In this document: positions 10,390 to 25,269 of the stretch, piece by piece
Layout of the letters: the number at the start of each line of letters is the position of its first letter
Numbering within the stretch: position 1 is the first letter of the stretch
Virus genome (UHGV): UHGV-0139590
From: a virus
DNA: 33,699 nucleotides
Strand: one strand, 5' to 3'
Program-made: the position numbers and the translations under genes
Notes under the pieces: generated by a model
Database searches by the model: none
What the model saw: only the letters and a program-made list of their open reading frames with translations
Told to the model about the DNA's origin: nothing

Positions 10390-11703
10390 ATGGCATTAAG
10401 AAAAGACTTTATTGAAATGAAAGAAGATGCTCCGTTCCCAGATGTCTGGGTGCCGCTGAGCGACAGTCTACGCTTGCTGGCGGGGTTGGCTCCCTTCGAT
10501 AAACAGATGGCCCACGACCCAGCATTGGAATTGACTTCAAAATCGGTGACGCTTACCCGCGCTTCTACGGCAACTTATATTGATAAAGCTGGTGTACTGA
10601 AAACAGCGGCGATAAACGAGCCTCGCTTTGAAAAAGAGGGTTTATTGATTGAGGGGCAGAGCACTAACCTCTTAATCAATAGCGAAGATCCAACAAAGTG
10701 GGGGACGTTTACTCTTTTAGACATTTCAACCCTTAGGGATGGCACGACACAGGCAGCGACGGTTAAAGGCACGGTAAATGCGACCAATGACACCAATAAT
10801 ATTTGGTTATGTGGTAGCCCCAGCCTTCCTGCCGTGGTGGGTGATGTATGGACCTTATCCGCACGTTTCAAGGCCTCCTCACATAGAGTTCGCCTCCGGT
10901 TTACCATCGACGGCGTGCAATTAGGTGACGTATTTTTCGACGGTGTTACAGGTGAGCAAGTCAGGGGTTTGTCCGGCGGCGTTACATACACTACAAAGCG
11001 GGGAAGCGACGGGTATATTTACGTTAGCGCCACAATCACAACGTCAATAGCGGGGTTGTTAGTCGGACAATTTTGGTTTAATGATGACGCACCAATTCCC
11101 GCTGGTTCGTTTGTCTGCCTGCAAACCATCCAGTTGGAAAAAAACGCAGTAGCAACCAGTTATATTCCAACGGGATCAGCCGCTGTTACGCGAGCTACTG
11201 ATGTCTGCACGCTTCAACGTTACGGTAACGACAACTACTTCGGACCCGTCACTTTTTCCGCAGAGATTCACCTTAACGGGAAAACTAACGCAGACGGTGC
11301 AATGACTTCTCGTCGAGGGATCATATCGGCTAAACCGTCATCAACAGAGTCTTACACGCTGATGTTGGCTACATCCGGCGCAAATGCAGGGAAACCGTGC
11401 TTTGGATACGGCAATAGTGATTTCGTCTACGGCTCTACGGGTCTTGATGATGGGAAAGGTCATGTTGTAGTCGCCAGATTTGACGGCTCTGACAAGTATC
11501 TGTGTTCAGATGGGGTAATGTCAGTAGGTCGCGCAGCAACTAAACCGGCATCAGGAAATGTGGATGCCACGAACCAAAATATCCAGATCGGTTACGGTGC
11601 TGCTTATGTTACGCCGGGGCACTCAGTGCTAAACGGCCACATTAGAAACATTCGTATCTGGCATCGCGCGCTTAATGATCGCCAAGTTAAAGGAATTCGC
11701 TGA
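10390..11703 (+). CDS. Second tail-fibre cassette with LamG-like C-terminus (437 aa), lacks the N-terminal ~290 aa of the first fibre
   Basis: ATG 10390 with AAGGAAAT upstream. Begins at the conserved block shared with the 698-aa fibre. C-terminus LNGHIRNIRIWHRALNDRQVKGIR. Confidence 0.7.
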   Translation: MALRKDFIEMKEDAPFPDVWVPLSDSLRLLAGLAPFDKQMAHDPALELTSKSVTLTRASTATYIDKAGVLKTAAINEPRFEKEGLLIEGQSTNLLINSEDPTKWGTFTLLDISTLRDGTTQAATVKGTVNATNDTNNIWLCGSPSLPAVVGDVWTLSARFKASSHRVRLRFTIDGVQLGDVFFDGVTGEQVRGLSGGVTYTTKRGSDGYIYVSATITTSIAGLLVGQFWFNDDAPIPAGSFVCLQTIQLEKNAVATSYIPTGSAAVTRATDVCTLQRYGNDNYFGPVTFSAEIHLNGKTNADGAMTSRRGIISAKPSSTESYTLMLATSGANAGKPCFGYGNSDFVYGSTGLDDGKGHVVVARFDGSDKYLCSDGVMSVGRAATKPASGNVDATNQNIQIGYGAAYVTPGHSVLNGHIRNIRIWHRALNDRQVKGIR

Positions 11704-11990
11704 TGAGAGATTTATATTTACGCTTCGCAGATGCGGACGAAATGCAGATGGTATTACTGGCCTTGGGTTTTCAGAAAGAAGAAGAGCAAGCCGGTCTTTA
11801 TCACCCTGATATCTGCCTCGATGTGGTGGGCGTTATGACCGAGCCTCAAAACCCGGAAGAAGAGAACCCTGATCTGATTGAGTTACCTGGCTATCATGCT
11901 AATGTGCGTGTCATTGACGATCAGCTGGATATTTCAGCGCTGGATGACTTCACCATCCACCCGGAAACACCGTCGCGCGTCTGGGCGTGA
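11703..11990 (+). CDS. Small fibre-associated protein (95 aa), paralogue of 10096..10380
   Basis: ATG overlaps the upstream stop (TGATG). Same sequence pattern as the first copy. Confidence 0.6.
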   Translation: MRDLYLRFADADEMQMVLLALGFQKEEEQAGLYHPDICLDVVGVMTEPQNPEEENPDLIELPGYHANVRVIDDQLDISALDDFTIHPETPSRVWA

Positions 11991-12015
11991 TGCACAGTTC
12001 TCCCCACATTAACAA

Positions 12016-12037
12016 AGCGCCTCCGGGCGCTTTTTTT
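12016..12037 (+). terminator. Rho-independent terminator (AGCGCC-TCCG-GGCGCT + T7)
   Basis: Perfect 6-bp stem, 4-nt loop, 7 T. An identical copy lies at 12414-12435. Confidence 0.65.
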
Positions 12038-12044
12038 GTACCCA

Positions 12045-12064
12045 CAAAACACAGACGCAATACC
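12045..12064 (+). promoter_or_regulatory. Conserved promoter-like box, copy 2 (CAAAACACAGACGCAATACC)
   Basis: Directly follows the terminator; about 25-40 nt upstream of the small membrane-protein gene. Confidence 0.4.
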
Positions 12065-12087
12065 TTCGGAGCGGGAAATTAAACACA

Positions 12088-12390
12088 ATGATGGGAGTAG
12101 CCATGAAGGATTTAACGCCGATTTATCACGCGATAGTCGCGGTTTTTGTGCAGTGCCTGATCGGTTTTATAACCGGCGCGTGGGGATTTGGTGGGGCGAT
12201 AGGCTGCGTGTGGTTTATTGCCCGCGAACATACCCAGGCGGAGTATCGCTGGATAGCTCGCTTCGGGAACGGTAAGCGCGCCAACATGCCGTGGTGGGGT
12301 GGTTTTGATTACAGGGTATGGAATATCGCCAGTGCCTTTGATTTTCAGGTGCCGGTGCTGGCCTGCATTATCGTTTACACCCTCACCTGA
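12088..12390 (+). CDS. Small membrane protein, possible holin/antiholin (95-100 aa)
   Basis: Three in-frame ATGs (12088, 12091, 12103). GGGAG sits 5 nt before ATG 12103 (MKDLTPIY...). Hydrophobic segments IVAVFVQCLIGFITGAWGFGGAIG and VLACIIVYTL. Bracketed by identical terminators. Confidence 0.5.
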   Translation: MMGVAMKDLTPIYHAIVAVFVQCLIGFITGAWGFGGAIGCVWFIAREHTQAEYRWIARFGNGKRANMPWWGGFDYRVWNIASAFDFQVPVLACIIVYTLT

Positions 12391-12413
12391 TCCCTTTATT
12401 CATATTTTATGTA

Positions 12414-12435
12414 AGCGCCTCCGGGCGCTTTTTTT
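12414..12435 (+). terminator. Rho-independent terminator, identical to 12016-12037
   Basis: AGCGCCTCCGGGCGCT + T7. Confidence 0.65.
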
Positions 12436-12442
12436 ATGCCCT

Positions 12443-12462
12443 CAAAACACAGACTCCATACC
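12443..12462 (+). promoter_or_regulatory. Conserved promoter-like box, copy 3 (CAAAACACAGACTCCATACC)
   Basis: About 38 nt upstream of the GTG start of the holin-like gene. Confidence 0.4.
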
Positions 12463-12499
12463 ATCCAGGCTCGAAGGGAAATTGAGAAAAGGTGGGAAT

Positions 12500-12814
12500 G
12501 TGTTCGAGTTGGAAACAAGTTTGATCCATGTCCTCGCCCTATCCCTTCTCAGTGGCTCCGGCGTGTTCCTGCATGGGGTGCGTGACGGAAGGATTAAGGG
12601 AAATTTCCTGAATTTTATCACTGAGTGGGTCCTGGCAGTGCTGGCTGGGCTGACAGCGTATTACGTCGCCCAGCATAAAGAATGGGAGCAAAGCCTGATG
12701 TATCTGGCGGTGCTGGTGGCGAGTAATAACGGGCGAGAAGTAACAAGTGCGCTTAAGGACCGATTTATTGCTGCAATGCAGTTTATGTTCGGTCCGAAAG
12801 GAGGTGAAAAATGA
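12500..12814 (+). CDS. Holin, lambda S-like class I (104 aa)
   Basis: GTG 12500 with AAGGTG 6 nt upstream. The longer ORF-track version (12299) runs across the terminator and promoter box, so is not used. Three hydrophobic segments and a KDRF...AAMQ C-terminus parallel lambda S. Confidence 0.55.
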   Translation: MFELETSLIHVLALSLLSGSGVFLHGVRDGRIKGNFLNFITEWVLAVLAGLTAYYVAQHKEWEQSLMYLAVLVASNNGREVTSALKDRFIAAMQFMFGPKGGEK

Positions 12815-13266
12815 TGAGTAATTTGCAGGAGTATTGCTTTTACGGAATGGCCGCGCTGGCCGTCTTTGATCGCTTCATCCTGAAACGTAAAAAAATCAGA
12901 CTGGTGGAGTGTGGTGATGCCGTGGTGCGGGGGCAGGCGCTGGCATTCCCGCTGCGGTTTAACGTCTCTTGCTCCCGCCTGACTGGCGCAATGGTCGAGT
13001 ACAGCCTGCGTGACTCCAAAAACCCGACGGCGGTTATCACCGGTAAGACGCGGACGCTGGATTTATCAGTAAAAGGGATGAACGAAGAGTATTTGCTGAT
13101 TGACCAACGCTACCTGGAGGCCGGGACGTGGTTTCTATCGGTCCGTGTCACTCATGGCAACAGCCGCATGAATCCGTTATACCGAATTTTCCCGGTTCAG
13201 GAATCAATTACGCACAATTACAGCGTCACAAAAGATGAGCAGGGGGTTTTCAGTGTCAGCAACTAA
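12811..13266 (+). CDS. Hypothetical protein (151 aa) with N-terminal hydrophobic segment
   Basis: ATG 12811 with strong SD AGGAGGTG; overlaps the holin stop. Confidence 0.55.
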   Translation: MMSNLQEYCFYGMAALAVFDRFILKRKKIRLVECGDAVVRGQALAFPLRFNVSCSRLTGAMVEYSLRDSKNPTAVITGKTRTLDLSVKGMNEEYLLIDQRYLEAGTWFLSVRVTHGNSRMNPLYRIFPVQESITHNYSVTKDEQGVFSVSN

Positions 13267-13879
13267 CGGCTATGTAACCCTTAACTTTGACGAACTCAAT
13301 GTTAAAGGACTGGAAAAGCTTAAAAAAGCAGTCAGTAAGGCCGGTTATGAAGTCGTGAAGGTCACACCAGCAGGCCAGGCACGGCGCAAAGACGGTATTC
13401 CAACAAAAACCTTTGAGCTGAAAGGTATCGACGAGCAGGTAATGGTTGTTCAGGTCAATAACACTGGCGACATTTCCGGCATAAAGCTCAACGGCAAAAA
13501 CTCACCGTACACGCCTGTTAAGACTATGGCCGAGCTGGGAAAAGCACTGGCCGATTTGTTTAAGAAAGGCTCGACGGCGTTCCAAAAGGCCCTGGCGCGA
13601 AAGCTGGCCCGCGCGGCTAAAAAGGACCTCGATAAGGACAAGCCAAACACCAGCAAGGGTGTGAAATCCGGCGTCCAGATGCTCAGTGATGCCCGCGCTC
13701 GCCGTGATGCGCAGAAAGAGGCGATTGAGGCCGTTAATGAAAAACTCACCGCCCTGAAAACAGAGCAGGATATGACGCAGAAGGAGCACGGCAACCTGCA
13801 AAACGAGCTAAATCTGGAAGTGGCGAAAACAACTCAACTCCAGGACCTTATTGCTAAAGCGAAAGGCGGCAACGAATGA
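13235..13879 (+). CDS. Hypothetical coiled-coil protein (214 aa; start may be GTG 13253)
   Basis: Overlaps the upstream gene by 32 nt at ATG 13235. Alternative GTG 13253 has AGGGGG 7 nt upstream. Stop overlaps the next start (ATGA). Size is similar to P1 Hdf as recalled from memory (not verified). Confidence 0.5.
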   Translation: MSRGFSVSATNGYVTLNFDELNVKGLEKLKKAVSKAGYEVVKVTPAGQARRKDGIPTKTFELKGIDEQVMVVQVNNTGDISGIKLNGKNSPYTPVKTMAELGKALADLFKKGSTAFQKALARKLARAAKKDLDKDKPNTSKGVKSGVQMLSDARARRDAQKEAIEAVNEKLTALKTEQDMTQKEHGNLQNELNLEVAKTTQLQDLIAKAKGGNE

Positions 13880-16560
13880 TTGATTTAACGAAAGAGATTG
13901 AGTTAACTGACAAGCCAAACTTTGTGGCTCCGCCTCTTACTGATTCGGTTTACGCGGAGTTAATGACGGGCAGCAGCGCCGATATGATGCTGGAAAGTGT
14001 CACTATTGACGATGTGGATCATGCCTACCTGGGCGATGAAATGCTTTACGTCAGTATCGCCACTGGCAAAGCCATGTTCGAGGCCGTCACCAGTGAGCGC
14101 CTGCGCTTGTCACAGACTATGCGCGCGTTCGCGCGCTCGCTAAACCGTGGCCTGAACGGCACCGGCATCAAAGCGGGAACCGATGACGCCGGTATTGATG
14201 AAGAGGGGCGCAAAACCATTGGCGGCGCGATCATTGGCAAGGTTCGTCGGGTGAACAACATCCCGATCATGACCGCGCTAATTCCGCTCTCTGACGGGCA
14301 GTCTATCTCACTGATTTTCCATTCCCCGACAGCGGATAACGGACGCATCAAAAATAGCGATCTGCTGGTGGCGTTTCGCTTCCTGCTGAATAAGCGCGAC
14401 GTGACGCATATCGTTGCCCCGATTGGTGGTCGTGACGTGTCGTTGCAGCAAGTAAGCCAAGCGCTGGCGAACCTTGCCGAGCGTAACAGCGCGAAATTCA
14501 CCAAACAGCAATCCGCACAGGTGAAGCTGCGCGCTGATATTGAGGGGTTGAACGCGGAAGCGGACCAACTGAGCGAGCAGCAGTCCTCCCTCCTGGAACA
14601 GGTCGAGACACACCAGCAATCCCTGATGAATAGCCAGAGTGACGCGCAACAGCTGCGAGGCAAACTCGCCACACAGCGACAGATTAACGCCGAACTGGAA
14701 GCGCAGCTGGCCGCACTGAAAACGAACGCCGGCAGTGATGTAATTACGCTTCCGGGAGAGACTGGCCGCACCTTCTCTGACACTACGCGTAAGGTGAAAG
14801 AAGGGCTTTCCATGAGCGGCACCACCACGCTCAGCAATGGTGCGGAAGTGGCCTACAAAACAGCTGACGACAACGGCGATCTGGTGGGCTGGGTACAGAT
14901 TACCGATCCTTCCGGGCAGGTTTACAAAATGCCGTCATCGTCACCCCAGGGCGCAAAGATGGGCGAAACGGCAACCAAACTGCTGAAAGCCTACCGCGAG
15001 AACAAAGCGGATAAGTTTGCCGTGGCAGCACCGGTAGAACCGACCCCGGGAAGCGATGACACACAGCAGGGAGCAGGCGCTGATTTGCAGCAGTTGGTGG
15101 CCGTCATCGGTAATGGTCTGACAGACGCGGCAGCGGCTGACTGGGCGGCGAATAAAAAAGCCACGCCTGATTTTATTCGCTTCCTGATCCGCCAGTACGG
15201 CACCGCTGATGATAAAGCCAAACAGCGATTCGTTGAAGGGATCGAGAAGAGCTGGAAAATCAAGTTGCCGGGTACGGGCAGCGACAATCGGCTGGTGGCG
15301 AAACTGGCGCGCGATTACGTTGATAGCATGAAGCGGCCAACCGGCACTGATTTCCTCAACACCTATTTCATGGGCGAAGCGCCGAAAGCCAGCCAGAACC
15401 CGGTTTACGTTCCGCACGTTGAAGGCGGTGATTTCTTTGCAGCACCAATAAATACGGCCATAGATCGCTACCGCGAAGCGCTGCCAAACCCGAAATTGAA
15501 CAGTACCCTGAAAGAGCAGGCTAATTTCCTGATCCGTCTGGTCAAGGCCGAGAAAGATTTCGAAGGCCTGGCAGAGAGCGTGGAAGATGGTTTTGCACGT
15601 CTTGCTGACGGCTCAATATTGACGCTTGAAGACGGCAAGCTGTTATTGTCCACAACCGATGACGAAACGCACAATGCGAAATACTCCGTTGACGTTGGCG
15701 ATCGCGCCCTGGAGGAAGCCATTGAAGATCTGGTGAGTTCGTATCGTCTGGGTAACGTGGAATACATGACGCCGGAAAGCCGCGAGAAAAACAATCCTGA
15801 GCCGCCAAAACCCGTTAGCCAGCCATCACCCGGCAATTACCGCTATGCGCTGGTTAACCGCCCGGCAGGCCCGGCGACTATCCCGGAAGGCAATACGGCC
15901 ATCCTGCCGCCTATATCGCAAAACGAGCCGTATGGCCGCATCGCACGCCACGGTTTCGTAACGTATGACGCGCCGCTGTCAGACGCTGATATGGCCGCGT
16001 TTGAGCTGAAACTTATCCCTACGCATGCTGATCTTGATGCGCTGGCAACGACGATCGCTCAGGGCCGCATGAACAGTTACGCCGCTGAGTATCTGGAAAT
16101 GGCGACGGATGATGCCGATACGTTCCGCTCGCAGGTCAGTATCTTTGCCCGTAAAGACGCGCCTAACGTGGCATTCCCGCAGGGCGATGATCTGGCGTAC
16201 TTCCTCCAGGCGATGAAGGTTGCGCTGGCCGAGGCGGCGAAAACCCCGCCAGCAAAAGATACAGGCCCTGCCGAAGGAGAAGAAATTGTGAAAAAAGAGG
16301 CTTCCGAAGCCGCAGGAAGCGAAGAGCCATCCGAGGCCGATAAGGCAGCGAATGATGCGCTGGCATACCTGCAAAGCATCCTGTCATTGCAGTCAAAAGA
16401 TATGGGCGTTATCCGTGAAGCACGAACCAAAGTCCGTGGCGCGATTGGTACGCTCCAGGCAGCTGGCCGTGACGTGGATAATGAACCTCTGGTAAACGAT
16501 GCTGCGCAGCACCTTTCCGATCTGCTGGTGGCAATTCAGCGTGAAGGAGCAACCGCATGA
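13876..16560 (+). CDS. Large putative virion-internal protein (894 aa), DarA-like by position
   Basis: Long ORF with good codon structure and a central coiled-coil (EQQSSLLEQVETHQQSLMNSQSDAQQLRGKLATQRQINAELEAQLAALK). Function inferred only by analogy to the P1 darA operon, which follows lydA-lydB. Confidence 0.65.
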   Translation: MIDLTKEIELTDKPNFVAPPLTDSVYAELMTGSSADMMLESVTIDDVDHAYLGDEMLYVSIATGKAMFEAVTSERLRLSQTMRAFARSLNRGLNGTGIKAGTDDAGIDEEGRKTIGGAIIGKVRRVNNIPIMTALIPLSDGQSISLIFHSPTADNGRIKNSDLLVAFRFLLNKRDVTHIVAPIGGRDVSLQQVSQALANLAERNSAKFTKQQSAQVKLRADIEGLNAEADQLSEQQSSLLEQVETHQQSLMNSQSDAQQLRGKLATQRQINAELEAQLAALKTNAGSDVITLPGETGRTFSDTTRKVKEGLSMSGTTTLSNGAEVAYKTADDNGDLVGWVQITDPSGQVYKMPSSSPQGAKMGETATKLLKAYRENKADKFAVAAPVEPTPGSDDTQQGAGADLQQLVAVIGNGLTDAAAADWAANKKATPDFIRFLIRQYGTADDKAKQRFVEGIEKSWKIKLPGTGSDNRLVAKLARDYVDSMKRPTGTDFLNTYFMGEAPKASQNPVYVPHVEGGDFFAAPINTAIDRYREALPNPKLNSTLKEQANFLIRLVKAEKDFEGLAESVEDGFARLADGSILTLEDGKLLLSTTDDETHNAKYSVDVGDRALEEAIEDLVSSYRLGNVEYMTPESREKNNPEPPKPVSQPSPGNYRYALVNRPAGPATIPEGNTAILPPISQNEPYGRIARHGFVTYDAPLSDADMAAFELKLIPTHADLDALATTIAQGRMNSYAAEYLEMATDDADTFRSQVSIFARKDAPNVAFPQGDDLAYFLQAMKVALAEAAKTPPAKDTGPAEGEEIVKKEASEAAGSEEPSEADKAANDALAYLQSILSLQSKDMGVIREARTKVRGAIGTLQAAGRDVDNEPLVNDAAQHLSDLLVAIQREGATA

Positions 16561-16895
16561 CGTTAACCGCACTGGAACGGCTGGACCTGAATGACCAGCT
16601 CGATGAGCTGATGATTCAGGCCCAAACGGCCAAGGGGCTGGACCTTCTCGATCTGAATGACCAGATTGAAGAGGTTATGTTAAAGCTGGGGTTCGGCAGC
16701 ACCCGCGCCGCGCCTACGGATACGATCCCGTCCGTTGTCACGGAGTTTTTGGCCGGGAAGTTCGTCAACCAGCCGCAGATGGATTTTGTGGATACTTTGC
16801 GCGAGGTAGGCGCGTATCTGGACCAGTTCTTGTCGCTGGACGATATGCGGCAGCAGGTGCGAACCTGGATCGCCAAAAACAATTACGCCATGTGA
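16557..16895 (+). CDS. Small acidic protein (112 aa)
   Basis: ATG 16557 with GAAGGAG upstream; overlaps the upstream stop. Followed by a strong terminator. Confidence 0.6.
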   Translation: MTLTALERLDLNDQLDELMIQAQTAKGLDLLDLNDQIEEVMLKLGFGSTRAAPTDTIPSVVTEFLAGKFVNQPQMDFVDTLREVGAYLDQFLSLDDMRQQVRTWIAKNNYAM

Positions 16896-16901
16896 AACAA
16901 G

Positions 16902-16924
16902 GCCCCGGAAACGGGGCTTTTTTT
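16902..16924 (+). terminator. Rho-independent terminator (GCCCCG-GAAA-CGGGGC + T7)
   Basis: Seven nt after the stop of the 112-aa gene; perfect stem and T-run. Confidence 0.7.
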
Positions 16925-16925
16925 G

Positions 16926-18135
16926 GTTCGCCGGTCGAAATCACAGCGTTTTATCCGTAATAGATTCAACGTTTATAAGGATGAACGGTTATTGACATCT
17001 TCCCGCCCTAAAGGATGGGGATTCCTACAGCCAGACGGCGATGCCCCGCCGCGAGAATGTTCTTTGCGGCGTTTACGTCGCGGTCGTGAGCGGTTCCGCA
17101 CTCACAACAAGTCCAGTCTCTTATTCGCAAGCCTGCTCTACCTTTCGGACTGTTAGCGGAGATAGCCCCGCAACACGAACAAGCCTGGGTGGAATATTTT
17201 TCGTTAACGACTTCGAACACTACCGACCGCGCAATCGCTTTGTATTTCAGTTGTGTTTTGAGCATGAACCAGCCAGCGTCCAGAACGCTTTTAGCCATTT
17301 TGGTTTTAACCAGTTTCTTACTGCTCACGTCGCCTACGAATATTGCCGCATGGCTGTTTACCAGTGCCGTGCTGTACTTATGCAGTGCATCTTTGCGGCG
17401 GTTCTTAATTTTGGCGTGAATGGCGCGTACGCGGGCTTTTTTGTTCGCCCTCTGCGCCTTGCCTAATGCGGGTTGCAGGTCACGATAAAACCTACCTGCA
17501 ACCAGTGGATCACCCTCTGACGGGGTGGCGTAGTCCTTTAATCCCAGATCTATGCCGATAGCTGTTATTCCCGTTGTCGGGGTGGTTTCGACTTCTACGC
17601 AGACATTGAAATACCAGCGCCCCCGACTATCTTCTGAAAAGCTACCGGCGCGGAATTTATAACCCGCCAGTCCGTAGCTATCCCACACCTTAAAATAGTG
17701 GCCTGCGAACTTGACGCAGCCATTTTGCCATTGCGCCTGCTTCGATTTAAACGGCACCCAGCCCAGAGAACGGCGAGCTCCGCCACTGACACGCCAGCGC
17801 AGACGCGAGCGTTTAAACTGCTTCCGCGCTTTGCCGTGGTCTGCGATCACTTCCTGCACCGTGGCGCTGCCGATGATATAGCCGCGCTCTTTCTGAATAC
17901 CTGCCGTCATCTTCTGAACGTCGAACGCCGACAGCCAGCGGGGAATTTGCGCACCAAAAGCGCCAGCGTTGCTGTATGCCTCGCTGGTTATCTCGTTTGC
18001 CAGATTAAAGACCTGATTGACCTCAAAGGCCATCTGCCGCAAAACGGCGGCGTGGCGGTCTTTAACCCGGACGGATAATGTTTTGATGCGCGTATTCATG
18101 CTCATTACTCCCGCCCGCAGGCGGGAGCCTCCGGG
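16926..18135 (-). mobile_element. IS200/IS605-family insertion element carrying only tnpB (IS1341-like); boundaries approximate
   Basis: Single TnpB ORF, with a perfect 8-bp stem / 4-nt loop hairpin (18108-18127) immediately upstream of its start, as in subterminal left-end hairpins of this family. No tnpA and no terminal inverted repeats, as expected. Confidence 0.6.
17008..18105 (-). CDS. tnpB: TnpB (IS605 OrfB-family RuvC-like, RNA-guided nuclease family), 365 aa
   Basis: RuvC-like motifs GIDLGLKDYATPSEG and HDRDVNAAKNIL; zinc-finger cysteines CSCCG...CCECG near the C-terminus. ATG 18105 with GGGAG upstream. Confidence 0.8.
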   Translation of the reverse strand: MSMNTRIKTLSVRVKDRHAAVLRQMAFEVNQVFNLANEITSEAYSNAGAFGAQIPRWLSAFDVQKMTAGIQKERGYIIGSATVQEVIADHGKARKQFKRSRLRWRVSGGARRSLGWVPFKSKQAQWQNGCVKFAGHYFKVWDSYGLAGYKFRAGSFSEDSRGRWYFNVCVEVETTPTTGITAIGIDLGLKDYATPSEGDPLVAGRFYRDLQPALGKAQRANKKARVRAIHAKIKNRRKDALHKYSTALVNSHAAIFVGDVSSKKLVKTKMAKSVLDAGWFMLKTQLKYKAIARSVVFEVVNEKYSTQACSCCGAISANSPKGRAGLRIRDWTCCECGTAHDRDVNAAKNILAAGHRRLAVGIPIL

Positions 18136-18666
18136 TTAGATCACAAACCAGTCTTCGGCCTGCTCGTCATTCAGCGAAGGGAAAAATTCCACCTCACCTC
18201 CATTAGAATCGAGCAAAAATAAATCATCATTTTCAATGAGAACGTAGCTCGCCGGAACCCAGCTAAGACGCCCTATGAATCGACCAGTACGCGCTGAAAA
18301 ACGCAGTGCTAATTCATACTTCACGTTGCGCCCCCGAAATATTCCAGTAGTTAATCTGAGGGCGATTTGTCGCAGTAAACCGGGCAGAAAAGATACAAGG
18401 TGCGTCGGGTAGTTGAGAACGGGCTTCGGATTCGCTTGCAGCAATAACCGTGTGATAGCGGCGTTTCTGGCAGGAATAGAAGCGCCATATAAATTCAGAG
18501 TGAATCTGGGTAGGGATTGCCAGCATGAGCTGATCTCCGATAACAGTTTAAAACTATCACCACCTGGAGTTTCCACGCTCTGATTGGTGGTGACGCTGAC
18601 GGGGGTGGAAATACCGGCGTTATCGGGAACCGGCCAGCCCGAGAGCTGCCCCGCCAGCGCCACCAT
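18136..18666 (-). CDS. Hypothetical protein (176 aa), weak call
   Basis: Longest ORF in a region with several overlapping ORFs on both strands. No clear SD. Ends exactly at the IS left boundary. No HUH motif, so not TnpA. Confidence 0.3.
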   Translation of the reverse strand: MVALAGQLSGWPVPDNAGISTPVSVTTNQSVETPGGDSFKLLSEISSCWQSLPRFTLNLYGASIPARNAAITRLLLQANPKPVLNYPTHLVSFLPGLLRQIALRLTTGIFRGRNVKYELALRFSARTGRFIGRLSWVPASYVLIENDDLFLLDSNGGEVEFFPSLNDEQAEDWFVI

Positions 18667-18718
18667 AATTTTGTGCGGATCTGTGCCGCTGAATATGGGG
18701 GTACTGACTTACGACAAT

Positions 18719-18741
18719 AAAAAAAGACGCCTGGCGCGTCT
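18719..18741 (-). terminator. Hairpin (AGACGC-CTGGC-GCGTCT) with T7 on the minus strand
   Basis: On the minus strand the stem is followed by TTTTTTT; on the plus strand it is preceded by A7. Confidence 0.4.
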
Positions 18742-18994
18742 GTTGTCGCCGATAACAATTTGCCGGGTTTCCACGCCCGTGCAGACCTTTTTCGTCTGCG
18801 AGAGCAAATGTAACCACCCGGAATGCAGTTTGCAACCACTTTGATTACATATCGGATGACAACAACATTGCCATACTGTCATACAATCGCACTGTAATAC
18901 AATAACAATTAGATTTACTGTTATTTTTCTTCGGTCAGTTGATTGCACATAGTTCATATCATCCCGTTACCGAAAACAGTTAGAGGGCAGGGCA

Positions 18995-20374
18995 TTGAAT
19001 GAATTAACGAATGCCATTGATAACACCGCTGGCGTGGATAGCCTGGTGGCACTGGTAGCATCACTGCATTTCAGCCAGACCGGGTTAGGCCGGACATCTT
19101 TTGTCGTGACCAGCAAAGGAGATGAGGTCAAAACCAGTTTTAAGGTGATCGATGCCCGAAGCCTGGTTATCTCCAACAATCTGGACGGCACCATTAACCC
19201 CAAATTCCCCGCCGAGTTGCAACCGCGCGACCGCACCCGCATGGCGAGCAAAATTCAGGTGAGCAAAATAGCGGGCAACCTGCGACCGGCCCAGCTGAGC
19301 GACTCCGGGCTTAGTAGTCACGGCGCGCCGATTGTCGGCCTGGATAACGTTGTCGAATCCGGTAACGGGCGCTCAATGGGTATTTTGCGCGCCTACGAAC
19401 AGGGGCAGGCGGACAGCTACCGGCTGTACCTGATTGAGCATGCTGTCGACTACGGGCTGAAAGCGTCGGACATTGAGAAGATGGATATGCCGGTGCTAGT
19501 GCGCGAGCGCATAACTGACGTTGACCGCGCGAAGTTTGCCCGCGATTCTAACCAGTCAGATTTACAGGAAATGGCCGCGAGTGAAAAAGCGTTTGTAGAC
19601 GCTGAAATGCTCGACGAGCGGCTCATGGCGATGTTTGCGCCATCAGATGAAGGCAATCTGTTAGCCCGCACCAACGACGCGTTTATTCGGGCATTCATGA
19701 AGGAAATTGGCGACACGGCCTCAGCTGGCCTTGTAACCACTGACGGGCGACCAACCAAGCAGCTGATTGACCGAATCCAGAATGCTATTTTTGCCAAAGC
19801 TTACAAAGATGAGCGTTTAGTAAAGCTGGTGGCAGAGGAGCCGGACCCGGATATGCGTAATATCCTGACCGCACTCAATACCGCAGCGAGCGATTTTGCC
19901 AAGATGCAGATGCTATCCGGCGACGTTCACAAGCAGGCGGTTGACGGGCTGGTGAGCGGCGTGGAGGAGGTGAGCGGGCTGGATAAACAGGCCATCGCCG
20001 CGCTACAGGATGCAATAAACCTCGTCCGCCAGGCGAAGGACAGCGGTCAGGCAATCGAAGAGGCGATCGCCCAGCAGGGATTGTTTGAGGAGACGAGCAA
20101 AGAGGCCGAGGCGCTGGCGCTCTTTATCGTGGCGAACAACCGTAGCGCAAAACGTATCGGCGCAGCATTCAAGAAGCTGGCGCAGAAAATTAACGCAGAG
20201 CTAACCCACCAGCAGCAGGCGTTGGGGGATATGTTTGGCGGGGGTGATTTATTGCTGGTGGACGTGCTTAGTGCGGTTTCACGCGAGATTGAAGAGGAGT
20301 TCGGCGAAGGGAAAGGGCTGAATTTTGCGATGTTTGAATCCGCAGCGGGTGCGGGGGATGTAGCCGTAAACTAA
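18995..20374 (+). CDS. ParB/Srx-like N-terminal domain protein (459 aa), TTG start
   Basis: TTG 18995 is the first start-like codon after an in-frame TAG at 18950, with GAGGG 7 nt upstream. Motif PIVGLDNVVESGNGRSMGILRAYEQG parallels the ParB box (for example P1 ParB ...ILDGSRRRASAIL). No adjacent parA. Confidence 0.6.
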   Translation: MNELTNAIDNTAGVDSLVALVASLHFSQTGLGRTSFVVTSKGDEVKTSFKVIDARSLVISNNLDGTINPKFPAELQPRDRTRMASKIQVSKIAGNLRPAQLSDSGLSSHGAPIVGLDNVVESGNGRSMGILRAYEQGQADSYRLYLIEHAVDYGLKASDIEKMDMPVLVRERITDVDRAKFARDSNQSDLQEMAASEKAFVDAEMLDERLMAMFAPSDEGNLLARTNDAFIRAFMKEIGDTASAGLVTTDGRPTKQLIDRIQNAIFAKAYKDERLVKLVAEEPDPDMRNILTALNTAASDFAKMQMLSGDVHKQAVDGLVSGVEEVSGLDKQAIAALQDAINLVRQAKDSGQAIEEAIAQQGLFEETSKEAEALALFIVANNRSAKRIGAAFKKLAQKINAELTHQQQALGDMFGGGDLLLVDVLSAVSREIEEEFGEGKGLNFAMFESAAGAGDVAVN

Positions 20375-20380
20375 TTGAAA

Positions 20381-20402
20381 GCCCGCTTAATGCGGGCTTT
20401 TT
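20381..20402 (+). terminator. Rho-independent terminator (GCCCGC-TTAAT-GCGGGC + T5)
   Basis: Seven nt after the stop of the ParB-like gene. Confidence 0.65.
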
Positions 20403-20412: not shown

Positions 20413-20432
20413 CTAAAACACAAACTGATTAC
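20413..20432 (+). promoter_or_regulatory. Conserved promoter-like box, copy 4 (CTAAAACACAAACTGATTAC)
   Basis: Follows a terminator and precedes the hydrolase gene by about 33 nt, the same arrangement as copies 2 and 3. Confidence 0.35.
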
Positions 20433-20464
20433 GGTGAATTCTTCTTTCAACTGAGGAATTCACT

Positions 20465-20956
20465 ATGAGTCAAACCGCAGAACAGCGCTGGGTAACAGAA
20501 GCGCGTAAAAATCTCCACGTCCGCGAAATCAAAGGTCCGCAGCATTGCCCGGAAATTCTGCAATACTGGCGCGACATCAAACGTGGCGGCATCAAAGACG
20601 ATGAAACACCCTGGTGCGCCGCTTTCGTCGGTGCCATGCTGGAGCGCGTCGGTATCCAGTCAACCCGCTTTGAATCGGCCCGTAGCTACCTGAACTGGGG
20701 AACCGAGCTTCGCGAGCCAGTGCCAGGATGTATCGTTGTATTCACCCGCGATGGCGGCGGTCATGTCGGCTTTGTTGTCGGCCAGAACGAGAATCGCGAT
20801 CTGCTGGTGCTGGGCGGCAATCAGTCCGATGCCGTCAATGTCCGCGCCTTCCCACGCGCCCGCGTTACCGGCTATCGCTGGCCTGCCGGTGAAGCACTCC
20901 CGGGTGATGTTCGCCTGCCTGTTACCACTGCGCAGAAGTCCACCAGCGAAGCGTGA
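20465..20956 (+). CDS. CHAP / NlpC-P60-like peptidoglycan hydrolase (163 aa), candidate endolysin
   Basis: ATG 20465 with GAGGAA upstream. Putative catalytic Cys in DDETPWCAAFVGA and His in DGGGHVGFVVG, typical of CHAP-type amidase/peptidases. Confidence 0.7.
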   Translation: MSQTAEQRWVTEARKNLHVREIKGPQHCPEILQYWRDIKRGGIKDDETPWCAAFVGAMLERVGIQSTRFESARSYLNWGTELREPVPGCIVVFTRDGGGHVGFVVGQNENRDLLVLGGNQSDAVNVRAFPRARVTGYRWPAGEALPGDVRLPVTTAQKSTSEA

Positions 20957-20987: not shown

Positions 20988-21911
20988 CTACTGATATCCA
21001 CGAAAACCTTTCGGGATCTTGCCGTAATCAACACCTGCGAAGGATTCCCGGAAAACGGTGTCATTCTTGCCATTCCCGGTAGTTTTAAACGCGCTCAGCA
21101 CTTTGAGCATCATGCTCTTGAGCTGGTTAATCTCATTGCCCTGGCGCTGGTTGTAGCGTTCCTCTGCGGCATTGAGCTGGCCCTGAATACGCGTTGCCGT
21201 GATAAGCGCATTCCACTCGGCAAGTGTTTTCCCCTGATAAGCCTGATCCGGTTTATCCACAACCTGCGACGGCTCAGGCGCACTATTTGGATTTTTTTCT
21301 CTTTCAGAAGAAGCAGTAACTATCTCCTTTTGTGCCTCATCTTGCGCCCCGGCTCCCCGCTTCGTTTTGCGCCCCCCTTCTTTAATGACAATCAGAGCTG
21401 ACGCGGCTTTCAGAGCAAACACCATTACTTTTTGTTTCAGGCGGCTGACGGTCTTGCGATAGAGGAAAATGGCGAGGCAAAACAGCATGGCTGGACGGGT
21501 GAGGGTGCGGCGGGCGGTTTCCGTTCCAATTGTGCCTTGGGGAATTTCGGAATTAAAAATCGCGCGTCCGGCATTGCTGGTGGTGAAGCGATCGAGGGTA
21601 GCAATGGACACTTCCGCTTCCTGGGCGATGGTCTTGCGGCTGGCGTAGCAAACGCCGGTATGTGACGGGTTAACTTTGTTGGCAATGCACCCGGCAATAA
21701 TTTTTCCGGTACGGCTGACGAGTGATGCAGGAAGGTAGGCGAGGGCGTTGCTTAATTTGTAGCCTGTAGGGAAAGCGCGTTGCAGTTCGAGCCATAGCGC
21801 GGCGTTGTCCATTTCAAGATAAGCGGAAAACTCAGGCAGGCCGGGGAATAGTGTGGGTTTTATTGCACTATCTGGTAAAGAATTAGGCTGGATTTGGTCA
21901 CAGTTTTGCAT
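20988..21911 (-). CDS. HTH-domain protein (307 aa), possible regulator or replication-associated protein
   Basis: ATG 21911 with AGGAAAT upstream. N-terminal region ...TGVCYASRKTIAQEAEVSIATLDRF... resembles winged-helix HTH modules. Convergent with the hydrolase gene. Confidence 0.5.
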   Translation of the reverse strand: MQNCDQIQPNSLPDSAIKPTLFPGLPEFSAYLEMDNAALWLELQRAFPTGYKLSNALAYLPASLVSRTGKIIAGCIANKVNPSHTGVCYASRKTIAQEAEVSIATLDRFTTSNAGRAIFNSEIPQGTIGTETARRTLTRPAMLFCLAIFLYRKTVSRLKQKVMVFALKAASALIVIKEGGRKTKRGAGAQDEAQKEIVTASSEREKNPNSAPEPSQVVDKPDQAYQGKTLAEWNALITATRIQGQLNAAEERYNQRQGNEINQLKSMMLKVLSAFKTTGNGKNDTVFRESFAGVDYGKIPKGFRGYQ

Positions 21912-22210
21912 TATTATTTCCTAAGTTGTTTGGGGCCTTTATGGATGAGCTGCCCCGCCTGCGCCCGCCAAGGCGCTGGTTGTTGGTTGAGAGTGGTATC
22001 TCGAAGTTCTTTGCCAGGTCGCCAAACCAATGGGCATCGAACAAAATCTTTAGAAAGCTGGTGGATCGCCATCCTCCGGCTTTTTTCTTTTTTATCCTGT
22101 CATAGCGTCATTCCTTGTTGTTTTTCAGGCACGACAAAACCGCACCGATAATTCGGCGCTGAGTGATTTTTACTCAGGGGACTGACACACGAAAACGCGC
22201 ATGAAAAAAC

Positions 22211-22239
22211 TTGAGTGCGGGGAATAGTGCTTGTAAACT
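22211..22239 (+). promoter_or_regulatory. Candidate sigma70 promoter (TTGAGT-17-TAAACT)
   Basis: Good -35 and 17-nt spacer, acceptable -10. No protein-coding ORF with an SD downstream before the terminator at 22333. Confidence 0.3.
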
Positions 22240-22246
22240 GACCTTA

Positions 22247-22356
22247 CAGCACTTTTCCAGTCTATTGCGTGTTGTCAGCATTGAGTGAGTGCGAATCACG
22301 TCAGCGCATAAGGGCTTAAAGGCCCGGCAAAAGCCACCTGCCAGGGTGGTTTTTTG
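22247..22356 (+). ncRNA. Candidate small RNA (~110 nt) between promoter-like hexamers and an intrinsic terminator
   Basis: Promoter-like element at 22211-22239 and terminator at 22333-22356 (CCACC-TGCCA-GGTGG + T6). Intervening sequence has no ATG-initiated ORF. Confidence 0.2.
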
Positions 22357-22408
22357 CTTTCTGGCGTTTAACATACGCCAAAAATTGTTACCCAGGAAGA
22401 TCCAGGCC

Positions 22409-22449
22409 AAAAAAAGGATCACGATCCAAGCTGGTGGCAATCGCGATCC
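22409..22449 (-). terminator. Minus-strand hairpin (GGATCACGA ... TCGCGATCC) followed by T7, downstream of the protease/scaffold gene
   Basis: Imperfect 9-bp stem with a long loop; the A7 on the plus strand becomes a T-run on the minus strand. Lies 60 nt after the gene end at 22509. Confidence 0.35.
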
Positions 22450-22508
22450 TAACCACGTCATGACCCTATAGCAATACTGTTTTTATGAACAGCACCTTAG
22501 AATCACTA

Positions 22509-23534
22509 TCACTTTCGATGTGGCCTGAGCCACAGCGCGGGCGTGTCATCGTCGGCGTGGCGTACTTTCGTGCCTACTGGCGCGGGCTTATGAGCCGATC
22601 TCCCGCCGTCCAGCGGCAGCGTTGCGCCTGCCGAGCCGACAGCAGATTCCAGCATGGCCGCAAGCACCATTGCGTCGTCTTCGGTTTCCATTCGGATCAG
22701 CGCCTGCTTCTGCTCCTTACTCAGGAACACCGGCAGCTCCGACACGGCATTGCGCAGGATTTTTCGACGTTTCGCCGCAGAATCCCCCTGGCTTTCCAGC
22801 ATCATGTTAACGTCGCGCAGGCGCTGCTCCACTTCCATTAAGCGCCCCTGGCTGGCCCATAGCTGGCTTTCCAGCTGGCCGGTACGCTCCACGGACTCCA
22901 GCATTGCCTGGTTGGTTCGCATTTTTTCGAAGTGGTGGCACAGGTCCGTCGCGGCGTTATCGCTGTAACCGGCGTTGCGCAGCGCGTTGTGCATTTGCTC
23001 GCCCCGGGTGTCGGCAGACTCCAGCATCATGCTGCTTTTATCCAGGCTGACATAGTTCGGAATGGTCACGTAGTCCATGCCGTGATAATTGTTCACCAGC
23101 GAGCGGATCGCCCCGTCTTTGCCACCCGTAACCCATGACCAGCCGCCCGCGTTAGAGGCGATCATGCCTTTCACAATCTGGCCCGGGTCGGTATCCAGTA
23201 TTTCCTGGGTGTGAGTGACAATGCCGTTATCGTCCACGTCGATTGCGACGGTGCGGTTAGACGGTACATTGGTCAGCGTTACCGGCTTGCCGTCCACCAG
23301 CACCACACTGACCTCCGGCAGGGTGAGCTTGCCGTCCTTCTCATACTGCAAGGCGCGGCGTCCGTGGCCGTAGTAGCCAAACATTTCACCCAGTTTTATA
23401 TGCTCGCGCACTTCTGGATCGTTGAACGTGGCGCGCACGGTCTGAATGATGTAGTTGCGGTCATTCTGCGGCGTGTGGCGTCGAATTTTGTCGATAAGGG
23501 AAAAGCGATCGGTAACGGTTTGAAGTGTTTTCAT
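22509..23534 (-). CDS. Putative head maturation protease / scaffold (341 aa)
   Basis: ATG 23534 with AAGAGAG upstream. Immediately downstream of the portal gene on the same strand. C-terminal half is coiled-coil-like, as in scaffolds. Protease assignment is by position only. Confidence 0.5.
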   Translation of the reverse strand: MKTLQTVTDRFSLIDKIRRHTPQNDRNYIIQTVRATFNDPEVREHIKLGEMFGYYGHGRRALQYEKDGKLTLPEVSVVLVDGKPVTLTNVPSNRTVAIDVDDNGIVTHTQEILDTDPGQIVKGMIASNAGGWSWVTGGKDGAIRSLVNNYHGMDYVTIPNYVSLDKSSMMLESADTRGEQMHNALRNAGYSDNAATDLCHHFEKMRTNQAMLESVERTGQLESQLWASQGRLMEVEQRLRDVNMMLESQGDSAAKRRKILRNAVSELPVFLSKEQKQALIRMETEDDAMVLAAMLESAVGSAGATLPLDGGRSAHKPAPVGTKVRHADDDTPALWLRPHRK

Positions 23535-23544
23535 GATGACTCTC

Positions 23545-25230
23545 TTAATTTTGGCTCATGACAAATTTGGCGAAGTTGAGTAGCTGGGTACGGCTCCAGT
23601 GCTCAGGGTTTTCATGACGATCTGGCGCGGATTCATGCATCATGTCCTCGTCGTCAAATTCGTGCTCAGCGGATACGGCTTTAAACTCGGTCAGCATCTT
23701 TTCCAGCATCTGCGGGTCCATCTTGAGCTGGTCACAGAACAGGTAGCGCATGAAGGTATCGCTGCCCGCCAGCTTCGGACTCTGCTGTATCTGGTCGAGG
23801 ATCTGGGTGATGATGGAAATGAAGTTGGCGCGGGCGTCCTGATCGCGGGCCTCTTCTGCCATCAGTGCGGTATTCATGGAGTTGAATTGCACGGTGAAAG
23901 GGCGCTGGTTCGGCAGGTAAATCTTGCCGTGCTTATACGCCAGGTGGATATCCACAAAGCGATAGATAGCGTCTGCCACGGCTTGTCGCAGCCACTGCGC
24001 GCGCTGCGCCGCATGAATGGCAGTTTGCGCCCAGCCGCCTTCCCCCAGACCGCCAGACATTTGATCTGCCCACCCCAACATCGTTGAATCAATGCCCAGG
24101 CTTGAGCACAGCTGGCGCAGGTGAAACATCACATCTTCAATGCCGGTGATATCTGCCGGGATGTACTGCGTATCCACGGTGACGCCGTTCTTGCCGTCGC
24201 CCATCAGCGGGATCAGGTGGTTCAGTACGGTCGGCATGGTGCTGGCCTGGACGGACCGGCGCGCCAGCGTCTCTGCGTTGCGTTTCAGTGATTGCGCTAC
24301 GCTGCGCGTGTAGTTGGCGGCGTTAACCGGGTCCAGTGTGCCGGTGGTCAGTGCGATCAGGCGGTCGATTTTGGCGGCGTTATAGCGCGTGGCTTTCAGG
24401 GCATTCAGCGCCCCGCACAGGTTCATAAATGGCTCGTAGGAGTGCTCCAGGAAGCTGGTGCCGTAATTCTGCGTCTCCATCAGATTCTGATCCTGAACGT
24501 CATTCATCAGGGTGTAGCCGCGCGTGCCGGTGGTCATCGGGATCAGGTTACGGCTCGGGGTCCAGTACGGGTTTTTGACCGGCACGATAAACCACGGCTC
24601 CGCCAGGGTCCGTTGCAGGTTGTCCGGGGTCAGCAGGTAATCGCCGGTATAGCCCGCCAGCTGCCCGCCCCGGTGGAATTCCTGGATGAAGTGGGGAAGG
24701 GTGTAATAGCTGGACTCGATGTTAACGATCCCCCGCCCGGGCTCGCCGTATGGCCGGGTAAAGCCCACGCCGAAAATCGACATAAGCAACCCCCATCCGG
24801 GCATCCCGTTATTAATCATTTCCCCCAGGTCTTCCATCAGCTCATTGCAGCGGGTGACGGCCTCTTTGTCTGCCGGGTTCTTTGCCACCAGCGAGAACGC
24901 CAGCCCGCTTCTTTTGCTGGGTGACAGGGCGTGTGCAATGTGGATATTGAGCGCGCTGGATACCGTGGCGCTTTTAGACATTTCCTCCAGGATCGGATAT
25001 TTGGCGAGGCGGTCCAGGGGCAGCGTCAGCCCAATGCCGAGGCTGTCCGCTTCCGTCGTCAGTTCACCCGGCGCATCGCCAGGCTTACCGACCAGCGTAG
25101 CCAGCCCGGACCGTGACACGACGTTATGCCCACTACTCAAAGGCAGATGGGAAACGGGCGTTTTGGGCGCGCTGGTGAACAGCTTTTTCAGGGCCGTGAT
25201 CGCCCCGTTAGTCGAGTTTCTGTTTGCCAT
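23545..25230 (-). CDS. Portal protein (about 561 aa)
   Basis: Large ORF directly upstream of the protease/scaffold gene and divergent from the DarB-like gene, matching P1-like prt-pro gene order. ATG 25230 is preferred over the ORF-track GTG 25263. Identification by size and context, not by a verified motif. Confidence 0.6.
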   Translation of the reverse strand: MANRNSTNGAITALKKLFTSAPKTPVSHLPLSSGHNVVSRSGLATLVGKPGDAPGELTTEADSLGIGLTLPLDRLAKYPILEEMSKSATVSSALNIHIAHALSPSKRSGLAFSLVAKNPADKEAVTRCNELMEDLGEMINNGMPGWGLLMSIFGVGFTRPYGEPGRGIVNIESSYYTLPHFIQEFHRGGQLAGYTGDYLLTPDNLQRTLAEPWFIVPVKNPYWTPSRNLIPMTTGTRGYTLMNDVQDQNLMETQNYGTSFLEHSYEPFMNLCGALNALKATRYNAAKIDRLIALTTGTLDPVNAANYTRSVAQSLKRNAETLARRSVQASTMPTVLNHLIPLMGDGKNGVTVDTQYIPADITGIEDVMFHLRQLCSSLGIDSTMLGWADQMSGGLGEGGWAQTAIHAAQRAQWLRQAVADAIYRFVDIHLAYKHGKIYLPNQRPFTVQFNSMNTALMAEEARDQDARANFISIITQILDQIQQSPKLAGSDTFMRYLFCDQLKMDPQMLEKMLTEFKAVSAEHEFDDEDMMHESAPDRHENPEHWSRTQLLNFAKFVMSQN

Positions 25231-25249
25231 TTTCTGCAAATACCTTTGG

Positions 25250-25269
25250 AAAATACAGACCACTTAGAA
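25250..25269 (+). promoter_or_regulatory. Partial copy of the conserved promoter-like box (AAAATACAGACCACTTAGAA)
   Basis: Core AAAA-N-ACAGAC matches the other four copies; the downstream half is divergent. About 50 nt upstream of the DarB-like start. Confidence 0.25.

Follow-up and report, generated by a model that had tools for sequence, protein, structure and literature searches.

Which phage system is encoded by the run of overlapping genes at positions 12088-16895 of the virus genome UHGV-0139590 is the question addressed here (the whole stretch of DNA that was analysed, 33,699 nucleotides (nt) long, is called the window). The region had previously been described, from the letters alone, as lysis genes followed in one operon by possible capsid-internal proteins of the kind made by phage P1, with an 894-amino-acid (aa) protein as a candidate divergent DarA; we refer to this description as the original prediction. 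We consider it very probable, from homology and gene order, that positions 12444-16920 constitute the late lydA-lydB-hdf-darA-ddrA operon of a P1-like myovirus kept as a plasmid. The system itself is already known, and the only points that go beyond routine annotation are an orphan module within DarA and the modular variability of the DarA family.

The lydA-lydB-hdf-darA-ddrA operon

The coding part of the operon comprises five genes on the plus strand (open reading frames, ORFs, at 12500-16895), bounded on the 5' side by a promoter-like site with P1 late-promoter geometry and on the 3' side by a strong intrinsic terminator:

12444-12464, plus strand: late-promoter-like site in front of the operon (box AAAACACAGAC, spacer TCCA, -10 TACCAT), positional analogue of P1 LPdar
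12500-12814, plus strand: lydA, holin, 104 aa, GTG start (E=2e-24 against P1 LydA)
12811-13266, plus strand: lydB, antagonist of LydA (antiholin), 151 aa
13253-13879, plus strand: hdf, coding for a paralogue of DarA that would be its partner inside the capsid, 208 aa from GTG 13253 (214 aa from ATG 13235)
13876-16560, plus strand: darA, antirestriction head-internal protein, 894 aa, aligned with P1 DarA in two blocks
15049-15831, plus strand: orphan in-frame module of darA, 261 aa (aa 392-652), between the capsid-bound N-terminal part and DarA_C
16557-16895, plus strand: ddrA, small Dar protein, 112 aa, directly after darA (E=2e-30 against P1 DdrA)
16899-16920, plus strand: operon-ending intrinsic terminator (9-bp stem with 6 GC pairs, GAAA loop, then T7; minimum free energy -17 kcal/mol)

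Judged by homology and gene order, LydA, LydB, Hdf, DarA and DdrA are orthologues of their P1 namesakes. In BLASTP comparisons with the P1 proteins they are 45% (LydA), 42% (LydB), 37% (Hdf), 41% (DarA) and 39% (DdrA) identical, with E-values from 1e-24 to 1e-85. The P1 record used as reference (NC_005856, darA operon at 27.5-31.2 kb) has the identical order lydA-lydB-hdf-darA-ddrA-ddrB, with LPdar just 5' of lydA and with lyz elsewhere; this is the arrangement that the original prediction gave for P1 (lydA and lydB before darA, endolysin at another place). A megablast search of the region against 50,697 phage records gave no nucleotide-level match; homology was established at the protein level because the lineage is too distant from P1 in DNA.

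The gene boundaries are as originally described: the ORFs of 151, 214, 894 and 112 aa are present (12811-13266, 13235-13879, 13876-16560 and 16557-16895), their starts and stops overlap and the strong terminator is there. The overlaps are of the 4-nt ATGA type at the lydA/lydB, hdf/darA and darA/ddrA junctions, and at the lydB/hdf junction they amount to 32 nt if hdf starts at ATG 13235, or to 14 nt if it starts at GTG 13253. The GTG is the more likely start of hdf: an AGGGGG ribosome-binding site precedes it, and the resulting 208 aa are the length called in relatives. The start of lydA is GTG 12500 and not the start of the long ORF at 12299.

The identity of the 894-aa protein is carried by several lines of evidence. 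It contains a DarA_N domain (PF18788, aa 66-205, 129.3 bits against a cut-off of 27) and a DarA_C domain (PF18789, aa 654-714, 47.6 bits against a cut-off of 27), it belongs to PHROG 1926 (4e-239), and it scores 691.7 bits against the NCBIfam equivalog NF052326 (anti_RE_DarA, cut-off 350) in two stretches that are broken by the insert. Its gene stands after lydA-lydB-hdf and before ddrA. For DarA and Hdf, the sole significant sequence matches in the PDB are their counterparts in the P1 head structure of 2025, obtained by cryo-electron microscopy (cryo-EM); phmmer aligned aa 11-387 of our DarA with residues 11-384 of chain 9ukm_I, the P1 DarA, at 1e-134. An AlphaFold2 model of the full-length protein, built from 46 sequences, is confident at aa 70-385 and 653-893, and in a Foldseek search it found P1 DarA (9ukm_I) as its only match (1.7e-20, 42% identity). 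The proposal of a DarA-type protein was therefore right, and that of a particularly divergent one was not, because the standard annotation model of NCBI would name it.

The long coiled-coil noted in this protein appears in the model as a 79-residue helix at aa 206-284, and weak SMC-type matches fall at aa 190-290. Such matches (SMC, ADIP and LmuB, E from 1e-3 to 0.1, within aa 166-290) are what a generic coiled-coil structural protein, a tape-measure or SMC-like protein unrelated to Dar, would also give; nevertheless, the DarA family scores, the structural match to the P1 DarA chain and the gene order already refute that explanation, to which we allow next to no chance.

For the two flanking proteins, the profile searches proposed earlier were likewise clearly positive, so that all three of the candidate Dar proteins of the operon are recognized. 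The 214-aa (or 208-aa) protein corresponds to P1 Hdf by PHROG 1620 (Hdf-like, 1e-53), by Pfam DarA_N (PF18788, 60.4 bits), by its 37% identity and by its match to the PDB chain 9ukm_H, 'Hdf' (1.6e-24). The 112-aa protein corresponds to DdrA by PHROG 1855 (DdrA-like, 6e-39) in addition to its 39% identity.

The operon region is 83-95% identical in nucleotides to three P1-like elements, namely the Leclercia adecarboxylata phage-plasmid pE1_003 (NZ_CP042508, 93.5 kb; L002) and two uncultured relatives, the Logan metagenome contig ERR12815701 (L003) and the IMG/VR contig IMGVR_UViG_3300013999_000001 (85.8 kb; L008), and the closest relatives are complete P1-like elements of 85-94 kb. All three share with the window the operon genes, the terminator after ddrA and the CHAP hydrolase gene discussed below. 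They differ from it in having an intact ddrB plus hxr and no tnpB/C4-icd insertion, and only L003 and L008 share the DarA insert, whereas the Leclercia DarA (646 aa) lacks it.

Beyond the operon itself, homologues of all six Dar proteins of P1 (Hdf, DarA, DdrA, DdrB, DarB and Ulx) as well as of LydA and LydB are found in the window, at 37-61% identity. Gene order, overlapping boundaries, a promoter just 5' of lydA, the divergent arrangement of prt and darB-ulx and an endolysin outside the operon are common to both. The differences are also clear: P1 DarA has 639 aa (894 aa here, by the 261-aa module); ddrA and ddrB are 12 nt apart in P1, whereas a terminator follows ddrA in the window and ddrB has its own promoter-like site in the relatives; ddrB has been shortened, hxr is missing and a tnpB/C4-icd segment stands between ddrA and ddrB; there is no lydC, no cin and no invertible C segment, and a lambdoid-type tail-fibre cassette stands upstream instead; and a CHAP/TIGR02594 peptidase is present rather than Lyz, without lydD or lydE, and the promoter box is another one.

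In P1, the inner face of the capsid carries 55 DarA-Hdf pairs at the penton-hexon junctions; these pairs also touch the DNA, and the Pro protease removes about 70 N-terminal residues of DarA (PMC12810830, PMC9024508); the capsid-bound part of DarA consists of hexon-binding, alpha-helix and penton-binding domains (residues 70-382; PMC12810830). Loss of Hdf or DarA is described as giving more small heads and excluding DdrA, DdrB, DarB and Ulx from the head, and the Dar proteins are described as leaving with the DNA and protecting it from type I restriction (PMC12810830, PMC9024508). By analogy, late in infection LydA would form membrane holes that release the endolysin, with LydB delaying LydA, as in P1, and one transcript would supply LydA and LydB together with Hdf, DarA and DdrA in large amounts. 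Hdf and DarA would co-assemble with the major capsid protein, helping to set head size and recruiting DdrA, DdrB, DarB and Ulx, again as in P1. All six Dar proteins would leave the head with the DNA and, once in the next host, would shield it against type I restriction. The internal proteins of phage T4 (for example IPI*) are similarly carried inside the capsid, leave it together with the DNA and act against host restriction (PMC12810830); however, they are not homologous to Dar proteins, IPI inhibits a type IV enzyme directly, and, unlike DarA and Hdf, they are not described as head-size determinants.

Transcription signals were identified both at the operon and at other late-type genes of the window:

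12014-12033, plus strand: intrinsic terminator that ends the tail-fibre genes (8-bp stem, then T7), first copy of a repeated terminator-plus-promoter cassette
12046-12066, plus strand: late-promoter-like site 5' of a small membrane-protein gene (box AAAACACAGAC, 4-nt spacer, TACCTT)
12413-12430, plus strand: intrinsic terminator between the membrane-protein gene and lydA (-12.8 kcal/mol)
16938-16948: remnant promoter box
20378-20400: terminator 5' of the CHAP gene, from hairpin and energy analysis
20416-20435: promoter-like site (variant copy) before the CHAP gene
25253-25270 (plus strand) and 25295-25278 (minus strand): promoter-like sites near darB and prt

The terminator at 12014-12033 has a predicted energy of -13.8 kcal/mol, and none of 200 shuffled sequences was as stable. 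The sites at 12046, 12444, 20416, 25253 (plus strand) and 25295 (minus strand) have the geometry of P1 late promoters, that is, a 9-bp box near -22, a 4-nt spacer, a TANNNT -10 element and no -35 element, and their consensus is A(A/T)ACA(C/T)AGAC-N4-TANNNT; in the 12444-12464 site the -10 element (TACCAT) is identical to that of P1 LPdar. A loose form of the pattern gave 4 matches, with 0.1 expected by chance, and the fifth, variant copy precedes the CHAP gene. All five copies lie 35-45 nt 5' of late-type genes (the membrane-protein gene, lydA, the CHAP gene, darB and prt), three of them directly after an intrinsic terminator as repeated terminator-plus-promoter cassettes, and they are kept at orthologous positions in relatives, the 12444-12464 site in L003 and L008. 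The gene for the activator of such promoters (Lpa in P1) is not in the window.

Several observations weigh against the assignment of the whole operon and its functions to the P1 scheme. The promoter box is unlike that of P1 (ACACAGAC here, AAGTTACTT there) and matches none of the P1 boxes AAGTTACTT, AAGTGATTT and AAATGACTA, and in the 46 kb at the start of the Leclercia plasmid the loose pattern gave no match, for which reason a general role as late promoter is something that we infer. LydA falls below the gathering score of the Pfam family Phage_holin_3_3 (PF16083, holin superfamily III; 16.4 against 28.4 bits). All functions are carried over from P1 at 37-45% identity and are to be read as analogies. 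In addition, the DarB branch of the Dar system may be impaired here, because ddrB is truncated and cut off from its promoter-like site, and DdrB of P1 aids the loading of DarB. To the gene identities themselves there is no counter-evidence. The main value of the assignment is correct annotation: a complete P1-type Dar system and its link with the lysis genes are kept in a distant P1-like phage-plasmid lineage (about 40% protein identity) of Leclercia-type Enterobacteriaceae.

The DarA insert and the modularity of the DarA family

The difference in length between DarA of the window (894 aa) and those of P1 (639 aa) and Leclercia (646 aa) is due to one in-frame block, aa 392-652. It begins at the equivalent of P1 residue ~388; in the cryo-EM model of P1 DarA the last residue is 382, the chain being flexible beyond (PMC12810830). 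From its place at the junction of the capsid-anchored and the flexible C-terminal parts, the insert would project into the capsid interior.

Relatives of the insert were found neither in Pfam, PHROG and PADLOC, nor among 50,697 phage and 72,556 plasmid records searched with tblastn, nor by HMMER against 1.84 billion protein representatives, nor in 185,579 GTDB species genomes. The single match obtained (P0121, E=2.7e-4) was rejected as an unrelated repeat protein, its score being inflated because it has five repeats. Besides the window, only L003 and L008 carry the insert, which is absent from P1 and Leclercia DarA. Its occurrence in three independent assemblies and the absence of intein-like ends led us to reject a mis-assembly or an intein as its origin, and an internal duplication was rejected as well, as there is no BLASTP match to the N-terminal part of DarA itself.

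In all three pairwise comparisons the insert has omega values of 0.13-0.17, with synonymous exceeding non-synonymous change as in the flanks, and its base composition is unremarkable. As judged from these substitution patterns, the insert is real coding sequence under purifying selection. Between the window and L003 it is 98.3% identical in nucleotides and the flanks are 92.6-94.5% identical; because the insert is less diverged than its flanks, this suggests that it was recently exchanged as a unit.

Structure prediction gave little confidence for the insert (mean predicted local distance difference test score, pLDDT, of 39.7 from the single sequence, and 23-60 for this part of the full-length model), too low for a meaningful fold search. 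Both predictions place about ten helices in it, followed by a beta-hairpin, a strand and a helix, at these low pLDDT values. A profile of the DarA penton-binding domain matched the last ~45 residues (aa 195-238 of the insert) very weakly, at 4.0 bits, a score that none of 200 shuffled sequences reached, and the strand-strand-strand-helix order predicted there, in the low-pLDDT model, resembles that of the penton-binding domain. We take this as a hint only.

To place the insert in the context of its family we surveyed the best 120 of 180 DarA homologues found at E<=1e-5 (P0001-P0120), which range from ~500 to 1100 aa; variable sites were measured in the 89 of them whose three conserved blocks could all be placed. 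There are two such sites, one between the capsid-bound part and DarA_C, of 6-269 aa (median 25), and one between DarA_C and the conserved C-terminal tail, of 14-511 aa. The modules at these hot spots form at least nine unrelated groups, and among the homologues listed the module of the window groups only with P0001, the L003 protein. No Pfam domain was found in the variable regions of ten long homologues. We also observed that the modules are linked by Pro/Glu-rich linkers and that some of them recur in differing combinations or positions.

We infer that the insert is passenger sequence, or cargo, at a hot spot where DarA proteins have taken up insertions repeatedly. It is somewhat unlikely that it is instead neutral filler, an expanded flexible linker at a permissive site: the low pLDDT, the absence of any homologue or domain in the searches above, the variable length of the site across the family, its Pro/Glu-rich flanking linkers and the disorder of the C-terminal part of P1 DarA itself in the virion would all be expected of a linker, but the omega values are as low as those of the conserved flanks, the sequence is not of low complexity, both predictions agree on a regular set of secondary structures, and the high identity with L003 relative to the flanks suggests exchange as a module.

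The passenger interpretation can be taken further, to a DarA that would act as a modular delivery chassis, its N-terminal part anchored to the capsid and its conserved C-terminal tail bearing exchangeable passengers at two hot spots, with the 261-aa module as a new capsid-packaged and co-injected anti-defence effector recently exchanged as a unit between P1-like elements. We put this forward tentatively and regard it as unlikely in its full form. The variability of the hot spots fits the idea of 'polyvalent proteins', or injected early effectors, of Iyer et al. (2017; PMC5512222), who also defined the DarA-N, DarA-C and DdrB-ParB domains. Such proteins and the DarA family have in common that they are packaged in the head, co-injected with the DNA and built of shuffled modules; unlike them, DarA of the window has one extra module only and no recognisable effector domain. 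If the hot-spot modules of DarA are injected effectors, they would be an untapped source of anti-defence functions.

Lysis genes, candidate endolysin and the upstream membrane protein

Two holin-like membrane proteins had been placed at the head of the operon, and only the second of them, LydA, has this character. LydA belongs to PHROG 1527 (holin, 1e-34), has hydrophobic segments at aa 6-24 and 36-57, and is 100% identical to the holin of the Leclercia plasmid. LydB, which follows, has a Pfam LydB domain (PF16084, 97.9 bits against a cut-off of 28) and belongs to PHROG 1898 (2e-50).

The first protein is not a holin homologue, and the terminator at 12413-12430 together with the promoter-like site at 12444-12464 splits its gene off from the operon:

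12103-12390, plus strand: small membrane protein, 95 aa (100 aa from ATG 12088), last gene of the tail-fibre cassette

With hydrophobic segments at aa 11-36 and 75-93, it matches PHROG 1443 (function unknown, 2e-39) and has no match in Pfam or NCBIfam and none to a holin family in Pfam, PHROG or NCBIfam. LydC was considered as an identity for the ORF (12088-12390) and rejected, given that no blastp or tblastn match to P1 LydC or LydA was obtained at E<=0.01. In lambdoid coliphages, homologues with ~60% identity are encoded immediately downstream of the tail-fibre genes; phage ev207 has a tail fibre, a 92-aa protein and the homologue of the membrane protein in this order, and its 92-aa protein shares 33% identity with ORF 11703-11990 of the window. 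On either side of the membrane-protein ORF there is a terminator hairpin (12014-12033 and 12413-12430); the two hairpins are near-identical, and downstream of both stands the motif AAAACACAGAC-N4-TACC(T/A)T. Given its own promoter-like site and the flanking terminators, the gene forms a moron-like unit of its own within the tail-fibre cassette, and the operon itself begins at 12444-12464. We observed further that positions 10390-12390 form a three-gene cassette (a 437-aa tail-fibre protein, a 95-aa protein and the 95-aa membrane protein) that is shared with lambdoid coliphages, e.g., ev207 gp22-24, and that stands in place of the cin invertase and invertible C segment found in P1 between the tail-fibre genes and lydC/lydA. 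A role of the membrane protein in superinfection exclusion would be a guess.

The CHAP hydrolase had been noted outside the operon, and the domain assignment holds:

20465-20956, plus strand: CHAP/TIGR02594 peptidoglycan hydrolase, 163 aa, candidate endolysin (TIGR02594, 136.7 bits against a cut-off of 70.55)

Pfam CHAP is also above its cut-off (34.4 against 26 bits, 3e-8). In place and direction the gene corresponds to P1 lyz, and it is preceded by a terminator and a promoter-like site of its own. Homologues of P1 Lyz, LydD and LydE, and likewise of LydC, were found neither in the window nor in the whole Leclercia plasmid, and this complete relative has no other annotated lysozyme; because P1-type Lyz is absent from both, the CHAP/TIGR02594 protein is the sole candidate endolysin. 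In other phages TIGR02594 proteins are annotated as putative endolysins and adjoin holin and spanin genes. From its family and position, the protein is probably the endolysin, and with Lyz, LydD, LydE and LydC absent and a CHAP gene in the place of lyz, the lineage would therefore have swapped its type of endolysin and retained LydA and LydB.

It is quite improbable that the protein is a virion-associated or injected peptidoglycan hydrolase and that the true endolysin lies outside the window. The best PHROG match points that way, as it is to a 'baseplate hub subunit and tail lysozyme' family, in its C-terminal domain (5e-45), with endolysin PHROGs matching at 1e-5 only, and the window represents 34 kb of an element of ~90 kb; nevertheless, the gene stands alone, codes for 163 aa and occupies the place and orientation of lyz behind a terminator and late-promoter-like site of its own, the complete Leclercia relative lacks homologues of Lyz, LydD and LydE as well as any further annotated lysozyme, and the family is called putative endolysin beside holin and spanin elsewhere.

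Two conserved minus-strand ORFs lie between this gene and pro, one of 307 aa that is 93% identical to its Leclercia counterpart (20988-21911) and one of 95 aa (22174-22461); searches of Pfam, PHROGs, NCBIfam and PADLOC assigned neither of them to a family at a significant score.

DdrB, DarB and the insertion beside the operon

The genes for the remaining Dar proteins and the elements that adjoin them are the following:

16953-18945, minus strand: 2-kb tnpB/C4-icd insertion, absent from all three relatives, delimited by the breakpoints against them
17008-18105, minus strand: tnpB, IS605-type, with TnpB domains
~18136-18324, minus strand: 62-aa ORF with a sub-threshold Tad2-like/DUF2829 match (E=0.056)
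18314-18526, minus strand: icd-like gene (68% to P1 Icd)
18583-18670, minus strand: C4 antisense RNA (Rfam C4, 80.7 bits against a cut-off of 45)
18995-20374, plus strand: truncated ddrB, 459 aa (61% to residues 3-445 of the 995 of P1 DdrB)
22509-25263: homologues of prt and pro
25318-32160, plus strand: darB homologue, 2280 aa (43% to P1 DarB over 2007 aa), divergent from prt/pro as in P1
32195-32629, plus strand: ulx homologue (47% to P1 Ulx, E=2e-37)

Located 3' of the ddrA terminator, the insertion separates the operon from ddrB and breaks up the promoter-like site that ddrB has in relatives. Relative to these, ddrB has moreover undergone an in-frame deletion of ~1.95 kb (against L002 and L008) that links codon ~455 of DdrB with the final codons of hxr, so that the C-terminal half of DdrB and hxr are gone. 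A full-length DdrB is therefore not encoded (the ORF ends at aa 459, and the intact proteins of the relatives have 958-1016 aa). The DdrB-ParB domain (PF18763, 131.2 bits) is retained. In P1, the C-terminal region of DdrB is a predicted metallopeptidase (PMC5512222), and DdrB is listed as aiding the addition of DarB to the capsid (PMC12810830, PMC9024508).

It is possible, if doubtful, that the Dar system is partly decayed, with the operon intact, DarB poorly or not packaged, and DarA/Hdf/DdrA-dependent protection (of the EcoA/StySA type in P1) alone left. The split promoter-like site, the loss of DdrB beyond residue ~455 together with hxr, the intact ddrB of all three relatives and the role of P1 DdrB in adding DarB to the capsid, with its C-terminal region as a predicted processing metallopeptidase, speak for such decay; however, the DdrB-ParB domain is complete in the remaining 459 aa (131 bits), the reading frame is kept across the deletion and closes with the stop codon native to hxr, there is a sigma-70-like site just 5' of ddrB (18876-18903), and darB and ulx are intact. 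With its ddrB truncated and off its promoter-like site, beside relatives in which the gene is intact, the window is a natural variant that offers a ready comparison for the role of DdrB in DarB packaging.

Two further observations concern the rearrangements themselves. An imperfect microhomology, GATATC...CGTA, is seen in the Leclercia sequence at the breakpoints of the ddrB deletion. The segment at 16953-18945 resembles a c4-icd module of the P1 immI type in which ant has been replaced, adjoining tnpB.

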